Of a stretch of 32,175 nt of DNA, positions 15,005-20,370 are shown piece by piece (position 1 is the first letter of the stretch; every line of letters begins with the position of its first letter). A program made the position numbers and the translations under genes. Source of the DNA: an uncultured Candidatus Saccharibacteria bacterium (GTDB lineage: Bacteria > Patescibacteriota > Minisyncoccia > Phycocordibacterales > UBA6899). Below the pieces are notes generated by a model, which was not told the origin of the DNA, did no database searches, and saw only the letters and a program-made list of their open reading frames with translations. The DNA is taken from assembly GCA_964409985.1 (NCBI GenBank), contig CAYPEZ010000006.1:1-32175 (forward strand). Direction: 5' to 3'.

Positions 15005-16171
15005 ATGCCACGAAAACTATCTCCAAAAAACAAGAAAGACTTTGCTGCCCTTGCACTTACCATTCACAAATCGCTTAACGGAAAGATCAGCATAGCTCCA
15101 AAGAAAAAAATACGTTCGCGGGATGATCTTGCTGTCTTTTACACCCCAGGAGTCGGTGCAGTCTCTACGTTTCTTTCAAAAAATAAGGAAAAGACCAAAG
15201 AGTATACGCTTAAAGGAAATGCTGTTGCCGTCGTTTCTGACGGATCAGCAGTTTTAGGCCTCGGTAACATAGGTCCAGAAGGGGCCTACCCCGTCATGGA
15301 GGGCAAGGCAATGCTCTTCAAGGCACTTGCAGATATTGATGCAGTGCCAATCCTCCTCTCAACACAAAATCCTGATGAAATTGTCGCAGCAGTGAAGGCA
15401 ATTGCCCCAACATTTGGAGGAATTAATCTTGAAGATATCGCTGCGCCAAAATGTTTTGAGATTGAGCGAAAACTTCAGGAGGCTCTTGATATTCCCGTCC
15501 TTCACGATGATCAGCATGGGACAGCAATGGTCGTCCTTGCGGGACTCATCAATGCACTCAAGGTCGTAAAGAAATCTCCACACAAAATTCGTGTTGCAAT
15601 TTCAGGGGCGGGAGCCGCGGGGGCAGCCATTGCATTCTTTTTGAAAGCATACGGTATCACAGAGATTCTCGTTGTCGACAGAGTGGGTGTCATCTACAAA
15701 ACTCGCCCGGACCTCAACCCTGAAAAACGTAAACTCGCCGAAGAAACAAACCCTCACAATGTTGGTGGAGGCCTTGCAGATGCGATGCGGGGAGCGGATG
15801 TCTTTATTGGCGTGTCCTCTGCAGGACTTGTCACCGAAGAGATGGTGAGAGGCATGGCACCACGTGCGATTGTTTTTTCGCTCGCAAATCCTGTTCCCGA
15901 GATCATGCCTGATGTTGCACTCAATGCCGGAGCAATGGTGGTCGCCACAGGACGATCCGACTTCCCCAATCAAGTCAATAACTCTCTCGGTTTCCCTGGA
16001 ATCTTTCGTGGCGCTCTCGACAATGGGGTAACACGAATCACTGATCTCATGCTGGTTCAGGCAGCAAAGAATCTCGCCTCACTCGTCAAAAAACCCACGG
16101 CAACAAATATCATGCCAGGGCCTCTCGATAAAAAAGCAGTGAGCGCAGTTGCTCGTGCGATCAGGAGTTAG
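15005..16171 (+). CDS. NAD(P)-dependent malic enzyme (short, MaeB-N-terminal/YtsJ type)
   Basis: DDLAVFYTPGVGAVS; VAVVSDGSAVLGLGNIGPEGAYPVMEGKAMLFK; FGGINLEDIAAPKCFEIERKL; IPVLHDDQHGTAMVVLAGLINAL; Rossmann motif ISGAGAAGAAIA; FSLANPVPEI; NNSLGFPGIFRGALD. Confidence 0.93.
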   Translation: MPRKLSPKNKKDFAALALTIHKSLNGKISIAPKKKIRSRDDLAVFYTPGVGAVSTFLSKNKEKTKEYTLKGNAVAVVSDGSAVLGLGNIGPEGAYPVMEGKAMLFKALADIDAVPILLSTQNPDEIVAAVKAIAPTFGGINLEDIAAPKCFEIERKLQEALDIPVLHDDQHGTAMVVLAGLINALKVVKKSPHKIRVAISGAGAAGAAIAFFLKAYGITEILVVDRVGVIYKTRPDLNPEKRKLAEETNPHNVGGGLADAMRGADVFIGVSSAGLVTEEMVRGMAPRAIVFSLANPVPEIMPDVALNAGAMVVATGRSDFPNQVNNSLGFPGIFRGALDNGVTRITDLMLVQAAKNLASLVKKPTATNIMPGPLDKKAVSAVARAIRS

Positions 16172-16532
16172 CCCTGTGATCCTCCGATTTTTTCGAAAAG
16201 TGTTCAACAAACAAATTGCTTGTTCTCTCTTTTTCTGCGGCAAGTAGATCTCTGAGCTCACAAAGATTATCTAGTGCAGCGTTGTACCCATCCGTGCCAT
16301 CATAAAGCGTGCCGTCTAAACGCTCTCCTTCCACAACGAGCTTCTCAACCTCGGAATGATAGCCATCAATACTTCCTGCGTATTCGGAACTTTCGTGGTC
16401 ATACATTCCCTCAATTTGTCCATTCACTTCAGCGTATTTTTCCTTCATTCGGCGAACAAGATCATCAAAATACTCCTGGGTGTGTTCTGGGTTTGAAGGA
16501 CTTACATTTTCTTTGTACGACTCGTGTTTCAT
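16161..16532 (-). CDS. Hypothetical small acidic protein (123 aa)
   Basis: ATG start 6 nt after the stop of the upstream 86-aa gene. The protein is strongly acidic with helix-prone composition and no TM or signal sequence. The 3' end overlaps the convergent malic-enzyme gene by 11 nt. No family was recognised. Confidence 0.55.
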   Translation of the reverse strand: MKHESYKENVSPSNPEHTQEYFDDLVRRMKEKYAEVNGQIEGMYDHESSEYAGSIDGYHSEVEKLVVEGERLDGTLYDGTDGYNAALDNLCELRDLLAAEKERTSNLFVEHFSKKSEDHRANS

Positions 16533-16538
16533 ATATTT

Positions 16539-16799
16539 CTAGTGTACTCGTGCAAGTATTCCTTGCAAGCGGTGTATTTCACTCTTTATGAGTTGATATT
16601 TCTCATCCACCAGAGGACCCAGCTCCCCAGCGTCTCTGAGGGCAACCTCAACGCTCTGTAATCGTTCTAAAATCTCCCGAATCATGCCAAACTCTTTAGA
16701 AGAGTCGTCAATCTCAGCTGCCTCTTCAAGAACCCCATCAAGGGCATCCATATTGACGGGAGAACCTTCTGGATTGAGTGAAGACACCCCTTCTTTCAT
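16539..16799 (-). CDS. Hypothetical small acidic, helix-prone protein (86 aa)
   Basis: ATG preceded by AAGGGGG. TACAAT lies 8 nt upstream of the start. Composition is acidic and Leu-rich. No family was recognised. Confidence 0.55.
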   Translation of the reverse strand: MKEGVSSLNPEGSPVNMDALDGVLEEAAEIDDSSKEFGMIREILERLQSVEVALRDAGELGPLVDEKYQLIKSEIHRLQGILARVH

Positions 16800-16821
16800 A
16801 CCCCCTTATTGTACTCTTCTC

Positions 16822-16885: not shown

Positions 16886-18133
16886 TTATTGCTTTTGTAT
16901 ACCCTTTTCCATTGTTGCGAACGCGTTCGAGGTGACCCCCGTTCCCGCTTTCTGGCGAAGGAACACCACGGTGAGCTCGGGCGTCCAGTCGTTTGTGGCG
17001 GTACCACTCGACCTGCCCAGAGTACCAGTCACAGATCCGATCGCCTCTCCCAGAGGGCCACCCGCACCTGGAGCAATACTCCAGCCTCGCCCCGTCGTCG
17101 CAAGGGTCGCATGCATGATGGTTGCCTTGCGGCTCATGACCATCAGGAGTGTTTCGTCCGTGCGCAGATACTGTCCGACTTGCGCCGCACGAATACGGAG
17201 CTCATCGACAGTGACCATATGAGCTTCCTTGCCTGCCGCTTGAACGCTCACCGAGGCGAGACACTCATAGGTTCCTTGGTCGGGAACCCTATTGGCTACC
17301 GCTGCGACGATCTTGGCACTCCCACGTTCCTTGCGGAGACCAGGAAAACCGGACATGGTCGTCATCGTCGGAAAGACATCTTTGGCCACAAAGAGCTGCT
17401 TGCCCTTATAGACCTCGATGTCTCCTCCTGTAGATCCACATGACTCCAGAATGGAGTACAGGTAGTCCACGAAGCATGTAGCACATTCTGCAATGACGGG
17501 CGCTGGAGCAAGTGACGGCGTCGACGGCGGGACGAGCATGACATTCAAATTCTTGTCATGGCTGTCGATCTTGAGGTCGACATTTCCCGCATTCGAGACA
17601 TTGCCTGTGTTGGAGACGTTGCCACTCGAATTATTCGTCGAGTTGCCGCTCCCCGAGACACTCTGCGACTGGCTCGAATTTCCACTTCCATTCATGGATT
17701 GGGACTGATTCGAGTTTCCACTCCCAGTAATAGACTGTGATTGGTCCTGGTTGGAATTCCCACTACCAGTCACTGCTGCTGAGGAATTGGAAGTCTGCTG
17801 CTGAGTCTGCCCTTGATGCTGACTCGCAGAGGAATTCGAAGTCGAATTCCCGCTGTTGCTCACAGACCCGCCTGTCGCGGAAGCATTGCCCCCTCCACCA
17901 CCATAAGCCACAGGATTTGCTGTGACCGTAGTGGTATTCGAAGCATTCCCTCCAGCACCACCTTGTCCGCCTTGCGGCTGATTGATGGTCTGACTCGGAA
18001 TCGTCGTGCAGTTGAAGCAACTGCCGGACTGATCGATGACCTGAGGCGTCGGTTGGCTTCCTCCTGTTGCATGCGCAACAGAAGCAGCACACATGAGTAC
18101 GGCCACGAGGACCGTTTTTCCCTTCATCTTCAT
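16886..18133 (-). CDS. Secreted protein: signal peptide, G/S/N/Q low-complexity region with GSGNSxQSQS-type tandem repeats, and an unassigned C-terminal domain of about 225 aa
   Basis: The ORF opens at TTG 18163, which overlaps the upstream stop as TTGA. ATGs follow at 18139, 18133 and 18127, and AAAGGGG sits 6 nt before 18133. The signal peptide is MKMKGKTVLVAVLMCAASVAHA|TGG. The low-complexity region spans about 17573-17980. The C-terminal domain contains ECATCFVDYLYSILESCG and YECLAS. No family was recognised. Confidence 0.75.
   Translation of the reverse strand: MKMKGKTVLVAVLMCAASVAHATGGSQPTPQVIDQSGSCFNCTTIPSQTINQPQGGQGGAGGNASNTTTVTANPVAYGGGGGNASATGGSVSNSGNSTSNSSASQHQGQTQQQTSNSSAAVTGSGNSNQDQSQSITGSGNSNQSQSMNGSGNSSQSQSVSGSGNSTNNSSGNVSNTGNVSNAGNVDLKIDSHDKNLNVMLVPPSTPSLAPAPVIAECATCFVDYLYSILESCGSTGGDIEVYKGKQLFVAKDVFPTMTTMSGFPGLRKERGSAKIVAAVANRVPDQGTYECLASVSVQAAGKEAHMVTVDELRIRAAQVGQYLRTDETLLMVMSRKATIMHATLATTGRGWSIAPGAGGPLGEAIGSVTGTLGRSSGTATNDWTPELTVVFLRQKAGTGVTSNAFATMEKGIQKQ
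17576..17773 (-). repeat. In-frame tandem coding repeats (36-nt then 18-nt period)
   Basis: VTGSGNSNQDQSQS / ITGSGNSNQSQS / MNGSGNSSQSQS / VSGSGNSTNNSS / GNVSNT / GNVSNA / GNVDLK. Confidence 0.85.
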
Positions 18134-18159
18134 CTTCATCCCCTTTACTTGTTTGAGGT

Positions 18160-19500
18160 TCAAAAAAGATCGAGGGAAGGAGATTGCTCCCCTTTCCTCA
18201 CCGTTCCATCAGGAAGGCATACAAGTGCCATTCCTTTATACTCAACATCCGGTGTTTGCCGGCAAATGTCTTCTGGCGAAGATGCTGTGACCATTGCTCC
18301 ACCAAGGACCGTGAAGGTTGCCTTGGGGGTTAGATTTCGCATTCTTTCGTCGACAGGACACAATCCATCACATGCGAGAGTTCGCCTTTCATAGGAAGGC
18401 GAACCAGAATTCGGTTGAGTGGGCGCGCAAGAGGCGTCACACGAGGGACTTGCGTCGGAGAGTGGAGCTCCCGAGACGCAGCCGGTCGTGGCGCAGTCTT
18501 GGGGCAGTCTCATTGGGACGCAGGGTCCTGTGTTGCATGTGGGTGGATCTGGTGGGGGGATCACCTTTGCCTCAATAGGCACTGGTGGAGGTCCCTCCGC
18601 TTTCCGTTCGACGAGAAGTGCGTAGTTACAGCACATGACTGGCATGCTTAGGGTCATGATAATGCGCATAGGCACACCATCAATAACCTCACGTCTTTCG
18701 TGTCTATAAACAACGACCATGTCTCCGTCACCAGGAGTGAATGCGACTCGCGTATTGGGATAGACTTTTTTCTTCCCCAACATGTCGCCAATCACTTCTC
18801 CTTTTTCGAGATCCCTTGCTACTTCCTCATTGGCGTTGATCTTTCGGAGAAGCTCCTTACGATCAGCTTCAGTCAACTGAGGAAAACGCTTAAGCGCTTC
18901 CTCGGGGCTGACATCGCATCCAAGAGGATCAGTGCCCCGATATTTCCACTCAGTGTATTCACCTTGGGAGGCGATACCCTGGTTGGAGCGAAATACCGGA
19001 ACTACTCTATTGACCTCAGCACGAGACGCAAAATGAACCGGTGTAGAGATCTGCTCTCCGCAAGCATCAGTCAGCTCAAGTCTCTGCCCAGGATAAATGA
19101 GGTCAGGATTCTTGATGTCGTTTTTGGTCGCAACGTTCTGCCAATCGTTAGGACAAATCGTCGACAACCAATCGCCTTCTTCCACAACGTACTCAAGAAC
19201 ACTGTCGCTCTTAAGCACAACCGGAGTGACTTGCGCCACCTCGGACTTCTTGGAAGGAAGTTTGTGACTTCCCTCGTTTATGGCCATCTGTTCTGACGCA
19301 TCGACGAGCGTTGGCTCGCGCAGAGTCTTCTGAACAGTGAGCCAAACCAAGCTCAATGCCACAAGCACCAGAAGAGTGAAAGCGATGATGGCTTTGGAGC
19401 CAATCACAACCCTCTCAACTGGAACATCACGCAGCTCGGGATCGATGTCAGGAATGACATCTCCGAGTTTCTCTGTCTTTGGAACTTTTTCGTTTTCCAC
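18160..19500 (-). CDS. Signal-anchored protein with a LysM domain, an unassigned central domain, a Pro-rich linker and a Cys-rich C-terminal domain
   Basis: GTG start with AAAAGGGG about 7 nt upstream. TM AIIAFTLLVLVALSLVWLTV. The LysM-like region YVVEEGDWLSTICPNDWQNVATKNDIKNPDLIYPGQRLEL lies at about 19072-19194. PPPVPIEAKVIPPPDPP is followed by about 13 Cys in about 115 aa (TCNTGPC...DCATTGC...SCDASC...ACDGLC...). Confidence 0.78.
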   Translation of the reverse strand: MENEKVPKTEKLGDVIPDIDPELRDVPVERVVIGSKAIIAFTLLVLVALSLVWLTVQKTLREPTLVDASEQMAINEGSHKLPSKKSEVAQVTPVVLKSDSVLEYVVEEGDWLSTICPNDWQNVATKNDIKNPDLIYPGQRLELTDACGEQISTPVHFASRAEVNRVVPVFRSNQGIASQGEYTEWKYRGTDPLGCDVSPEEALKRFPQLTEADRKELLRKINANEEVARDLEKGEVIGDMLGKKKVYPNTRVAFTPGDGDMVVVYRHERREVIDGVPMRIIMTLSMPVMCCNYALLVERKAEGPPPVPIEAKVIPPPDPPTCNTGPCVPMRLPQDCATTGCVSGAPLSDASPSCDASCAPTQPNSGSPSYERRTLACDGLCPVDERMRNLTPKATFTVLGGAMVTASSPEDICRQTPDVEYKGMALVCLPDGTVRKGEQSPSLDLF

Positions 19501-19579
19501 GAGTATCCCCTTTTAAGCGTTTTGGGTTTTACAAAATCAACAAACAGTCTGGTCTCGAAACTACCAGAAAATTGGCTTC

Positions 19580-19607
19580 TGTCAAGTTATCTTCCGTTCA
19601 AGATAAC
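19580..19607 (-). promoter_or_regulatory. Candidate promoter -35 (TTGACA on the minus strand) abutted by a perfect 8-bp inverted repeat GTTATCTT-N6-AAGATAAC
   Basis: Plus-strand tgtcaa at 19580-85. The inverted-repeat arms are 19586-93 and 19600-07. The element lies between the upstream terminator and the GTG start at 19500. The -10 is weak (TAGTTT at 16-nt spacing). Confidence 0.3.
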
Positions 19608-19671: not shown

Positions 19672-20370
19672 TTATGGACGTTTTTTAAGAAGGATAAGCC
19701 CAAAACCAACCGCCAAGAGACCGAGTGCGATTTCGACAAAATGGAACTCTCGATTGACTGTTTCAAGGATCACTCCGTGTGTGCGAAGAGTTTCCGACAT
19801 GCTCCCTACTGAAGCCGAACGAGCAGGAAACCCGAGCTCAGCTTTTTCCATCGGACACCCAAAGGAGCCGGATGAGTGGTATCGTGTTACTCCCTTTCCC
19901 ATATCTTTTGGTGTCATATCAGGTGCACCCCCCATCACATGACCACCGGGGTGGCAGGTAAACGTAAGGTCAACATCAGCATTCTCAATAGTACCGAAAA
20001 TACGGTAGGAGAGGACGGTTGCTTGTGTAGGGTAAAAGAGTGAAGTGTACGCACCTGGCTGTCCCCACACACCCGTGATGTCTTGGGTCCTTTTCTGCCC
20101 GCTAGCCGAAATTTCAAGCTTGAGTGAACTTTCTAATCCTAGTACTGGAGTGCCACTTGAGGCTGTGGGTGAAGACAGTTTTTGGACACGCAAATCTAAT
20201 CCTGACCGATCATCTACCACTACCGGCTCTCCCTGACTCCCAATAGTGAATTGATAATATTGCCCTCCTATCTCAAAGACTCCGTGCTCATGAGCACTTG
20301 CCGTGGTCCCAAATGAGACGAGAGAGGCAAAAAGAAGGAGTCCCCCTGCTAACATTCGATGCTTCATCAT
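19672..20370 (-). CDS. Hypothetical exported protein with a C-terminal TM anchor; the predicted mature N-terminus begins HEHG
   Basis: Signal peptide MMKHRMLAGGLLLFASLVSFGTTASA|HEHGVF. The C-terminus IALGLLAVGFGLILLKKRP is a TM with a basic tail. An internal FTCHPGGHVMGG motif is present. No family was recognised. Confidence 0.7.
   Translation of the reverse strand: MMKHRMLAGGLLLFASLVSFGTTASAHEHGVFEIGGQYYQFTIGSQGEPVVVDDRSGLDLRVQKLSSPTASSGTPVLGLESSLKLEISASGQKRTQDITGVWGQPGAYTSLFYPTQATVLSYRIFGTIENADVDLTFTCHPGGHVMGGAPDMTPKDMGKGVTRYHSSGSFGCPMEKAELGFPARSASVGSMSETLRTHGVILETVNREFHFVEIALGLLAVGFGLILLKKRP

Follow-up and report, generated by a model that had tools for sequence, protein, structure and literature searches.

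Two adjacent genes on the minus strand of a 32,175-nucleotide (nt) stretch from an uncultured Candidatus Saccharibacteria bacterium may encode a lineage-specific, probably highly expressed surface pair that is anchored to the cell wall by a LysM module. The stretch, hereafter the window, is contig C6 of a genome of 0.87 Mb that is roughly 90% complete. Gene 1 (18160..19500, minus strand; 446 amino acids, aa) encodes a bitopic membrane protein that comprises, in order, a transmembrane (TM) helix, a LysM-like module, an orphan middle domain, a Pro-rich linker and a Cys-rich C-terminal domain, while gene 2 (16886..18133, minus strand) encodes a secreted protein. Saccharibacteria live attached to other bacteria and have genomes rich in orphan exported proteins; to our knowledge, little is known about the proteins at their interface with the host beyond type IV pili. 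An original prediction, made from the sequence letters, had described the two genes as a self-contained exported module and suggested that they form an adhesive or fibre-like pair.

Both of the predicted minus-strand open reading frames (ORFs), at 18160-19500 and 16886-18163, are present and are called as genes by both NCBI and JGI annotation. With the same-genus locus L015 as the reference for this and all other substitution rates reported here, gene 1 has a ratio of nonsynonymous to synonymous substitutions (dN/dS) of 0.31 and gene 2 one of 0.055. In view of these ratios and annotation calls, the two ORFs are genuine genes under selection. The predicted overlap of the two genes at a TTGA (18160-18163), by contrast, is probably an artefact of ORF listing: a Shine-Dalgarno (SD) sequence, AAAGGGG (18146-18140), precedes the ATG codons at 18139, 18133 and 18127, none precedes the TTG at 18163, and gene 2 of L015 starts at an ATG 42 nt past the gene 1 stop. 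The probable start is ATG 18133, spaced 6 nt from the SD, with 18139 and 18127 as alternatives and TTG 18163 unlikely; since gene 2 most likely begins at this ATG, the two genes would not overlap. Database versions of the gene 2 product (NCBI, JGI) measure 413, 417 and 418 aa. The start region contains a 6-nt tandem repeat (18122-18140; CTTCAT x3.2 on the plus strand, that is, ATGAAG x3) encoding M-K-M-K-M-K, which is in frame and so provides three alternative start codons rather than a frameshift switch.

To map the distribution of the pair, we searched 5.8 billion proteins, with a profile search of 1.84 billion (1.84e9) representatives, as well as genome sets covering the family (29 genomes) and the order (401 genomes from 224 sampled genera). 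Five lineages carry the pair, namely the window, L015, L003, L004 and L005/L006 (the latter two loci constituting one lineage), and all but the window are known from short contigs only. The genes are adjacent in every genome that has them, so that this check proposed with the original prediction came out in its favour, and the order gene 1, gene 2 and a gene for an acidic protein of ~88 aa (86 aa in the window) is kept in all five lineages. Within the 29-genome family, all three genes occur in the studied genome and one other genome of the same genus (G001), and are absent from the remaining 27; the gene 2 domain was found in none of the other 400 genomes of the order. The system is thus confined to one genus and a few close uncultured relatives. 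In one respect, this distribution revises the original prediction: the unit is not a self-contained pair but is larger than two genes, because the downstream 86-aa gene shares the exact presence/absence pattern of genes 1 and 2.

The membrane anchor of gene 1 is a single hydrophobic helix at aa ~35-57 (19330..19398, minus strand), as predicted, seen both in the hydropathy profile and as a helix at aa 35-60 in an AlphaFold2 (AF2) model. Some 45 residues beyond the membrane follows a single LysM-like module (aa ~100-145; 19066..19203, minus strand). Its match to the Pfam LysM profile PF01476 (aa 104-142; profile positions 1-41 of 43; E 0.008) scores 16.5 bits, below the cut-off of 20.9, yet the assignment is consistent across libraries: LysM-bearing PHROG endolysin models match the same residues (E 8e-7 to 4e-5), PDB LysM chains match the stretch at E 0.03-0.17, and the LysM-containing NCBIfam models NlpD, ActS and SafA match weakly, in the LysM region only. 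The AF2 model of this stretch (strand 102-105, helices 112-115 and 120-126, strand 140-143), albeit with a predicted local distance difference test (pLDDT) score of only 50-60, reproduces the beta-alpha-alpha-beta order expected of a LysM domain of ~44 residues. LysM domains are known to bind peptidoglycan or chitin glycans; here, the module would bind peptidoglycan. It is also the sole part of gene 1 with matches in other family genomes.

The remainder of gene 1 is specific to its own family, whose homologues are found in L003, L004, L005 and L015 only. An orphan middle region of about 150 aa separates the LysM module from a Pro-rich linker (aa 301-321, EGPPPVPIEAKVIPPPDPPT; 18538..18600, minus strand), which was read directly from the translation, where the original prediction had expected it, and which has a Pro-rich counterpart in all homologues. 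The predicted Cys-rich C-terminal domain (aa 322-436; 18193..18537, minus strand) likewise exists but holds 10 rather than about 13 of the protein's 15 Cys residues; the family keeps seven of them without exception and an eighth in four of five members, and the domain matches no family or structure. The head may be stabilized by disulfides.

Gene 2 begins with a signal-like N-terminal helix typical of Sec signals and an A-x-A cleavage site that is invariant in the family, in agreement with the predicted signal peptide cut after A-H-A. Together with the TM helix of gene 1, this signal places both products outside the cytoplasm, as had been proposed. The mature protein consists of two contrasting parts. 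The first is a low-complexity spacer (17585..18064, minus strand) of 161-164 aa, 78% of which are Ser, Gly, Asn, Gln or Thr (27% Gln plus Asn, 18% Gly), with only 9% hydrophobic and 2% charged residues. It contains the predicted 12-aa and 6-aa peptide repeats (three to four and three units, respectively), backed by three diverged 36-nt DNA copies of 69-75% identity at 17664-17777, although Tandem Repeats Finder returned no array in the repeat region. The spacer is the least conserved part of the family: in homologues, it spans 115-175 aa, is rich in Ala, Glu and Lys with 9-15% charged residues, and contains zero or one GSGNS motif, making the GSGNS/QSQS repeats genus-specific. The repeat region thus behaves as a flexible spacer.

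The second part is a conserved orphan C-terminal domain of 232 aa (16889..17584, minus strand), 51-66% identical across lineages and with a dN/dS of 0.036. Its ECAxC motif is invariant, and a Gly/Ser/Thr-rich segment (TTGxGWS..PGxGG..AIGS..GT.G.SSGTATNDWTPE), the most conserved of the family, is nearly so and has GxxxG spacing. Neither an LPXTG motif nor a C-terminal TM helix was found at the C-terminus of gene 2 (...NAFATMEKGIQKQ). Elsewhere in the genome, a 408-aa ORF on the minus strand of contig C19, which has no homology to gene 2, encodes a second exported protein that combines a signal peptide and a Ser/Gly/Asn/Gln-rich stretch with a TM anchor at the C-terminus.

The three globular regions for which the original prediction recognised no family proved to be true orphans in protein, profile, Pfam, NCBIfam and PDB searches. 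The gene 2 C-terminal domain matched only five clusters among the 5.8 billion proteins, its profile retrieved nothing outside its own family, and gene 1 outside LysM had no relatives beyond its own family in the same searches. Sequence and profile searches of Pfam, NCBIfam, PHROGs, PADLOC and PDB yielded nothing beyond LysM, the only Pfam match of gene 2 being SOG2 at E 0.46, and viral contigs, phage records and JGI metagenome contigs held no relatives. Because the alignments were too shallow, neither AF2 model is reliable: four sequences gave a pLDDT of 36.7 for the gene 2 C-terminal domain, and five gave 42.2 for full gene 1. Foldseek comparison of both models with the PDB gave no match at E <= 0.001; the weak top matches of gene 1 (MTC28, DcrB, EagT6/SciW and PA94; E 0.05-0.4) are a lead only, given the quality of the model.

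Two candidate relatives of gene 2 within the family were rejected. A weak hidden Markov model (HMM) match in genome G021 (E 0.04) was noise, and a 361-aa secreted protein of genome G014 reached an hhalign probability of only 0.3%. The latter belongs to a pair of adjacent orphan secreted proteins near a contig end (L031 on G014:C24, 12208-13958, minus strand) without Pfam matches: the 361-aa protein has a Pro-rich stretch and a C-terminal coiled coil, its 194-aa partner is Gly/Ser/Asn-rich, and the pair has no detectable homology to gene 2.

The pair is framed by conserved expression signals. Upstream of gene 1, a promoter (19548..19586, minus strand) combines the predicted -35 box TTGACA (19585-19580) with a 16-nt spacer and an extended -10 element, TGgTAGTTT (19566-19558). 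A palindrome, TCTGGT (19568-19563)/ACCAGA (19553-19548), spans the -10 box and is conserved in the form TCTGG(T)-N9-(A)CCAGA. The block CTTGACAGAA-N5-TTTTCTGGTAGTTTC-N4-CCAGA shows no variation among the window, L003, L004 and L005, even though the gene 1 products of these lineages are only 36-38% identical. The 8-bp inverted repeat that the original prediction noted at 19607-19580 is present in the window but is not conserved in relatives. With a single occurrence in the genome and, across the family, occurrences in G000 (the studied genome) and G001 only, always with this cassette, the promoter block does not qualify as an operator heading a regulon or other cassettes. Next comes an A/T-rich 5' leader (TTGTTGATTT...; 19501..19547, minus strand) that is conserved in the DNA alignment and ends in an SD, AAAGGGG (19513-19507); the same SD precedes both genes, as predicted. 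Neither an Rfam match nor covarying structure was found in the leader, and a structured leader RNA or riboswitch was rejected on these grounds.

Intrinsic terminators were confirmed on either side of the pair. The upstream one (19648-19615; 15-bp stem then T run, minus strand) serves a gene for a 232-aa YcnI-like protein and separates it from the operon, with equivalents ahead of the promoter in L003, L004 and L005. The downstream one (16867-16836; 14-bp stem plus T run, minus strand) is strong and is conserved in L015, L003, L004 and L005, including a compensatory A:T to G:C change in L003. Between the genes lies a hairpin followed by a T run (18173..18193, minus strand). L015, L003, L004 and L005 each have a hairpin and a T-rich run at this junction too; the stem sequence differs per lineage, and the gene 1 stop of these four falls in or beside the loop. 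In the window (18160-18199), the stop codon of the relatives reads CAA, and gene 1 extends by 10 codons through the hairpin to a TGA inside the T run. The hairpin could serve as a partial terminator and thereby set the ratio of gene 1 to gene 2.

Base composition and divergence bear on expression and exposure. The GC content at third codon positions (GC3) of gene 2 (16886-18127) is 0.585, against a genome mean of 0.437, placing it among the highest 5% of ORFs that are 250 aa or longer. Translation genes reach a GC3 of 0.47-0.64 (IF-3, L35 and EF-G, 0.51-0.64), and the value of gene 2 may be a sign of high expression, not of foreign origin. Between lineages whose gene 1 products are 36-38% and whose 86-aa proteins are 27-42% identical, IF-3 is 87% identical; fast evolution is usual for exposed surface proteins. 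Synonymous divergence (dS) from L015 is 0.35 for genes 1 and 2, compared with 0.69-1.17 for five neighbouring genes and 0.47 for the YcnI-like gene, and it is a mosaic within the pair (LysM segment 0.03, gene 1 Cys-rich domain 0.10, gene 2 spacer 0.22). This pattern would be explained either by recent recombination between lineages, affecting the 3' end of gene 1 and the 5' end of gene 2, or by selection on synonymous sites.

Taken together, a surface pair fits these data best because of the topology of the products, a LysM module close to the membrane, the Pro-rich stalk and Cys-rich head, an adjacent partner lacking an anchor, expression signals that are strong and conserved, and a gene 1 that evolves fast relative to a slowly evolving core. 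In the mechanism that we envisage, the conserved sigma-70-type promoter with its extended -10 would drive genes 1 and 2, the junction hairpin may adjust their ratio and the strong terminator would end the unit after gene 2, leaving two small acidic cytoplasmic proteins to be encoded beyond it. The gene 1 protein would span the membrane, N-terminus inside, with its LysM module gripping the cell's own peptidoglycan and its middle domain and Pro-rich stalk pushing a disulfide-rich head outwards. The gene 2 protein would be exported by Sec, cut after A-H-A and released as a flexible, uncharged spacer joined to a constrained domain of ~230 aa. Since it lacks an anchor for either wall or membrane, it would most likely be held by docking on the wall or on the gene 1 head; the two proteins would then form a surface structure that may face the environment or the host bacterium.

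Several points weigh against this proposal. No known means of retention—LPXTG, SLH (Pfam), LysM, lipobox or C-terminal TM—was recognised in gene 2. Both AF2 models are too unreliable for a fold to support a structural role, and a purely structural surface complex leaves the strict co-occurrence of cytoplasmic acidic proteins unexplained. A bolder version, which we regard as distinctly improbable, casts the locus as a genus-specific host-interface device, in which the wall-anchored stalk of gene 1 presents the secreted gene 2 protein and the Gly-rich segment of the latter assembles into, or inserts in, the host envelope. Were it true, the device would represent a new pore-forming or feeding/attachment module without database relatives, with the acidic proteins serving as chaperone or antidote.

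The locus is a small, well-delimited and strongly selected clade-specific gene set with clear promoter and terminator signals, and a clear case of an envelope module that arose de novo or evolved fast. If it does encode a surface complex, it would be a candidate determinant of host or niche specificity for the clade. Nothing yet points to a new mechanism, and we see the locus mainly as a lead for structural and expression work.

Past the gene 2 terminator lie two small genes. The first (16539..16799, minus strand) encodes the 86-aa acidic helical protein, which lacks a signal peptide and evolves with a dN/dS of 0.185; it carries LNPEG as an invariant N-terminal motif and has a His at the C-terminus. 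In all five loci, it is preceded by an invariant GTACAAT (16814-16808; feature 16801..16814, minus strand), located directly past the gene 2 terminator and 0-3 nt upstream of the SD (AAGGGGG in the window). GTACAAT could be a -10 box that gives rise to a near-leaderless transcript. A TACAAT-like sequence also occurs ahead of the gene 2 SD in L003 and L005. A search of the five members of the 86-aa family with the WXG100 profile gave no match at E <= 10, and their central motif, (L/V)-G, lacks Trp.

The second gene (16161..16532, minus strand) encodes a 123-aa acidic protein that shows no sequence conservation, even within the genus. Four of the five lineages have a small acidic gene here; the L005 contig stops short of this point, but the gene is present in L006, which belongs to the same lineage. 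In L015 (L015:2975-3280), the counterpart is 101 aa long, cannot be aligned with the window protein and shares with it the first ~6 residues only (MKHxESY), in a neighbourhood of genes that are 77-99% identical between the two loci. We infer that the gene has either been replaced or is evolving extremely fast. PADLOC models for anti-phage defence matched none of the five locus proteins.

These companions are central to the strongest, if unlikely, competitor of a surface pair, according to which gene 2 encodes a secreted effector or a toxin akin to bacteriocins, the acidic proteins of 86 and 123 aa are its cognate protective partners, and gene 1 is an accessory for release, activation or self-protection. 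The conserved Gly-rich segment would then act on the envelope of the host actinobacterium or of competing cells. The exact co-occurrence of the 86-aa protein with the pair is what one would expect of such a system, and replacement of the next small gene even within the genus is typical of fast-evolving, immunity-type genes. A Gly-rich most conserved segment with GxxxG spacing, the very narrow distribution and a dS that is lower in the pair than in flanking genes (0.35 versus 0.69-1.17) point in the same direction. Moreover, the layout of gene 2, in which an unstructured N-terminal region rich in Gly, Ser and Asn leads into a conserved C-terminal domain, recalls that of large bacteriocins. What tips the balance the other way is that no toxin, lysin or immunity family was matched in Pfam, NCBIfam, PHROGs or PADLOC, that a strong, conserved terminator lies between gene 2 and the small genes, and that cytoplasmic immunity to a Sec-exported protein would be unusual. 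In addition, purifying selection on gene 2 is very strong and its C-terminal domain (dN/dS 0.036) shows no sign of arms-race diversification; a structural protein fits better.

Slightly less probable again is a role in wall remodelling or division, with the LysM protein recruiting or regulating a wall-acting gene 2 product at the septum or wall of its own cell, in the manner of the LysM-containing hydrolase activators NlpD and ActS. The proximity of the LysM module to the membrane anchor would suit such an accessory, as would the weak NCBIfam matches to NlpD, ActS and SafA. The latter, however, reflect LysM alone, and neither protein contains an M23, amidase, glycoside hydrolase (GH) or transglycosylase domain. 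Nor would a core wall function be expected in only one of 224 sampled genera.

The original prediction had favoured a curli-like or otherwise amyloid-prone partner, that is, a fibre formed by the Q/N-rich repeats of gene 2 and nucleated or anchored by the LysM protein. We now consider this very unlikely. The composition of the spacer is superficially suited to a prion-like fibre—more than a quarter Gln and Asn, hardly any charge, and short repeats—and within the genus the spacer is under purifying selection (dN/dS 0.063). Yet neither Curlin_rpt nor any other amyloid family matched at Pfam E <= 1, the repeat period is 12 or 6 aa rather than about 20, and few hydrophobic residues combined with abundant Gly favour disorder. 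The repeats are, besides, the variable part of the family: as homologues replace the spacer with charged, A/E/K/N-rich sequence, amyloid propensity is not a family property. Curli-type accessory genes were not found in the locus by Pfam or NCBIfam searches either.

Upstream of the operon, the YcnI-like gene (19672-20370) encodes an exported 232-aa protein with a mature N-terminus of HEHG and a C-terminal TM helix, but without a Pfam match. This gene neighbours the pair in four lineages, CopCD does so in L005, and a gene for a multi-cytochrome-b5 surface protein in the window and L004. We rejected the YcnI-like gene as a member of the operon, since a terminator lies between, and as a member of the module, since it occurs in six family genomes without the pair, there beside a CopC/CopD gene. 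In other genera of the family (L031, G014:C24, 6354-9072), it lies directly upstream of a CopC/CopD fusion, near a ZIP-like transporter and a His-rich membrane protein, which supports a copper role that would be independent of the operon. The least probable of the readings, an extracytoplasmic metal or redox function tied to these copper genes and the multi-cytochrome-b5 protein, with the CxxC motif of gene 2 and the Cys-rich head of gene 1 as thiol or metal sites, can draw on this neighbourhood and on the invariant CxxC within the ECAxC motif of gene 2, but is countered by the six genomes in which the YcnI-like gene accompanies CopCD without the pair, by the intervening terminators, by the lack of any thioredoxin, HMA or cupredoxin match, and by the fact that inherited synteny among close relatives (IF-3, 87% identical) explains the arrangement.

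Set against known systems, the locus has partial counterparts only. Surface proteins anchored by sortase (LPXTG) or SLH domains differ from gene 2, which has no LPXTG motif, TM helix or SLH match. The resemblance to the curli subunits CsgA/CsgB (Curlin_rpt, PF07012) is confined to composition, that is, Gly/Ser/Asn/Gln-rich repeats including G-x-G-N. Curli repeats are ~19-23 residues long and follow the pattern S-x5-Q-x-G-x-G-N-x-A-x3-Q, whereas gene 2 has units of 12 and 6 aa with almost no hydrophobic positions, no HMM match and repeats that are not conserved in orthologues; no genes of the CsgB or CsgG/E/F type were matched among the five locus genes (Pfam, NCBIfam), and the organism is of the monoderm type. 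Large bacteriocin and polymorphic-toxin loci share with the operon a Gly/Ser/Asn-rich N-terminal part, a conserved C-terminal domain and strictly co-occurring small acidic helical proteins encoded downstream; the operon departs from them in its Sec signal peptide, the terminator ahead of the small genes and the lack of a recognisable toxin or immunity family.

With exchangeable or lineage-specific surface-protein cassettes, such as S-layer gene cassettes, the operon has in common a strong consensus-like promoter, a conserved leader, a strong terminator, a narrow distribution, one fast-evolving partner and a raised GC3. It lacks an SLH or other S-layer anchor, Cys residues and a long disordered N-terminal region set gene 2 apart, and the promoter accompanies this cassette only rather than heading others in related genomes. 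As for LysM-anchored surface proteins of monoderm bacteria, such as SafA of Bacillus subtilis and those of the lactococcal AcmA and NlpD/ActS types, gene 1 stands apart through its sub-threshold Pfam score, a single LysM copy, orphan attached domains and the lack of a hydrolase or coat-protein domain. What it shares with them is one module of the LysM type, which would presumably hold the exported or membrane-tethered protein to peptidoglycan, and a match that extends over nearly the whole 43-residue profile.

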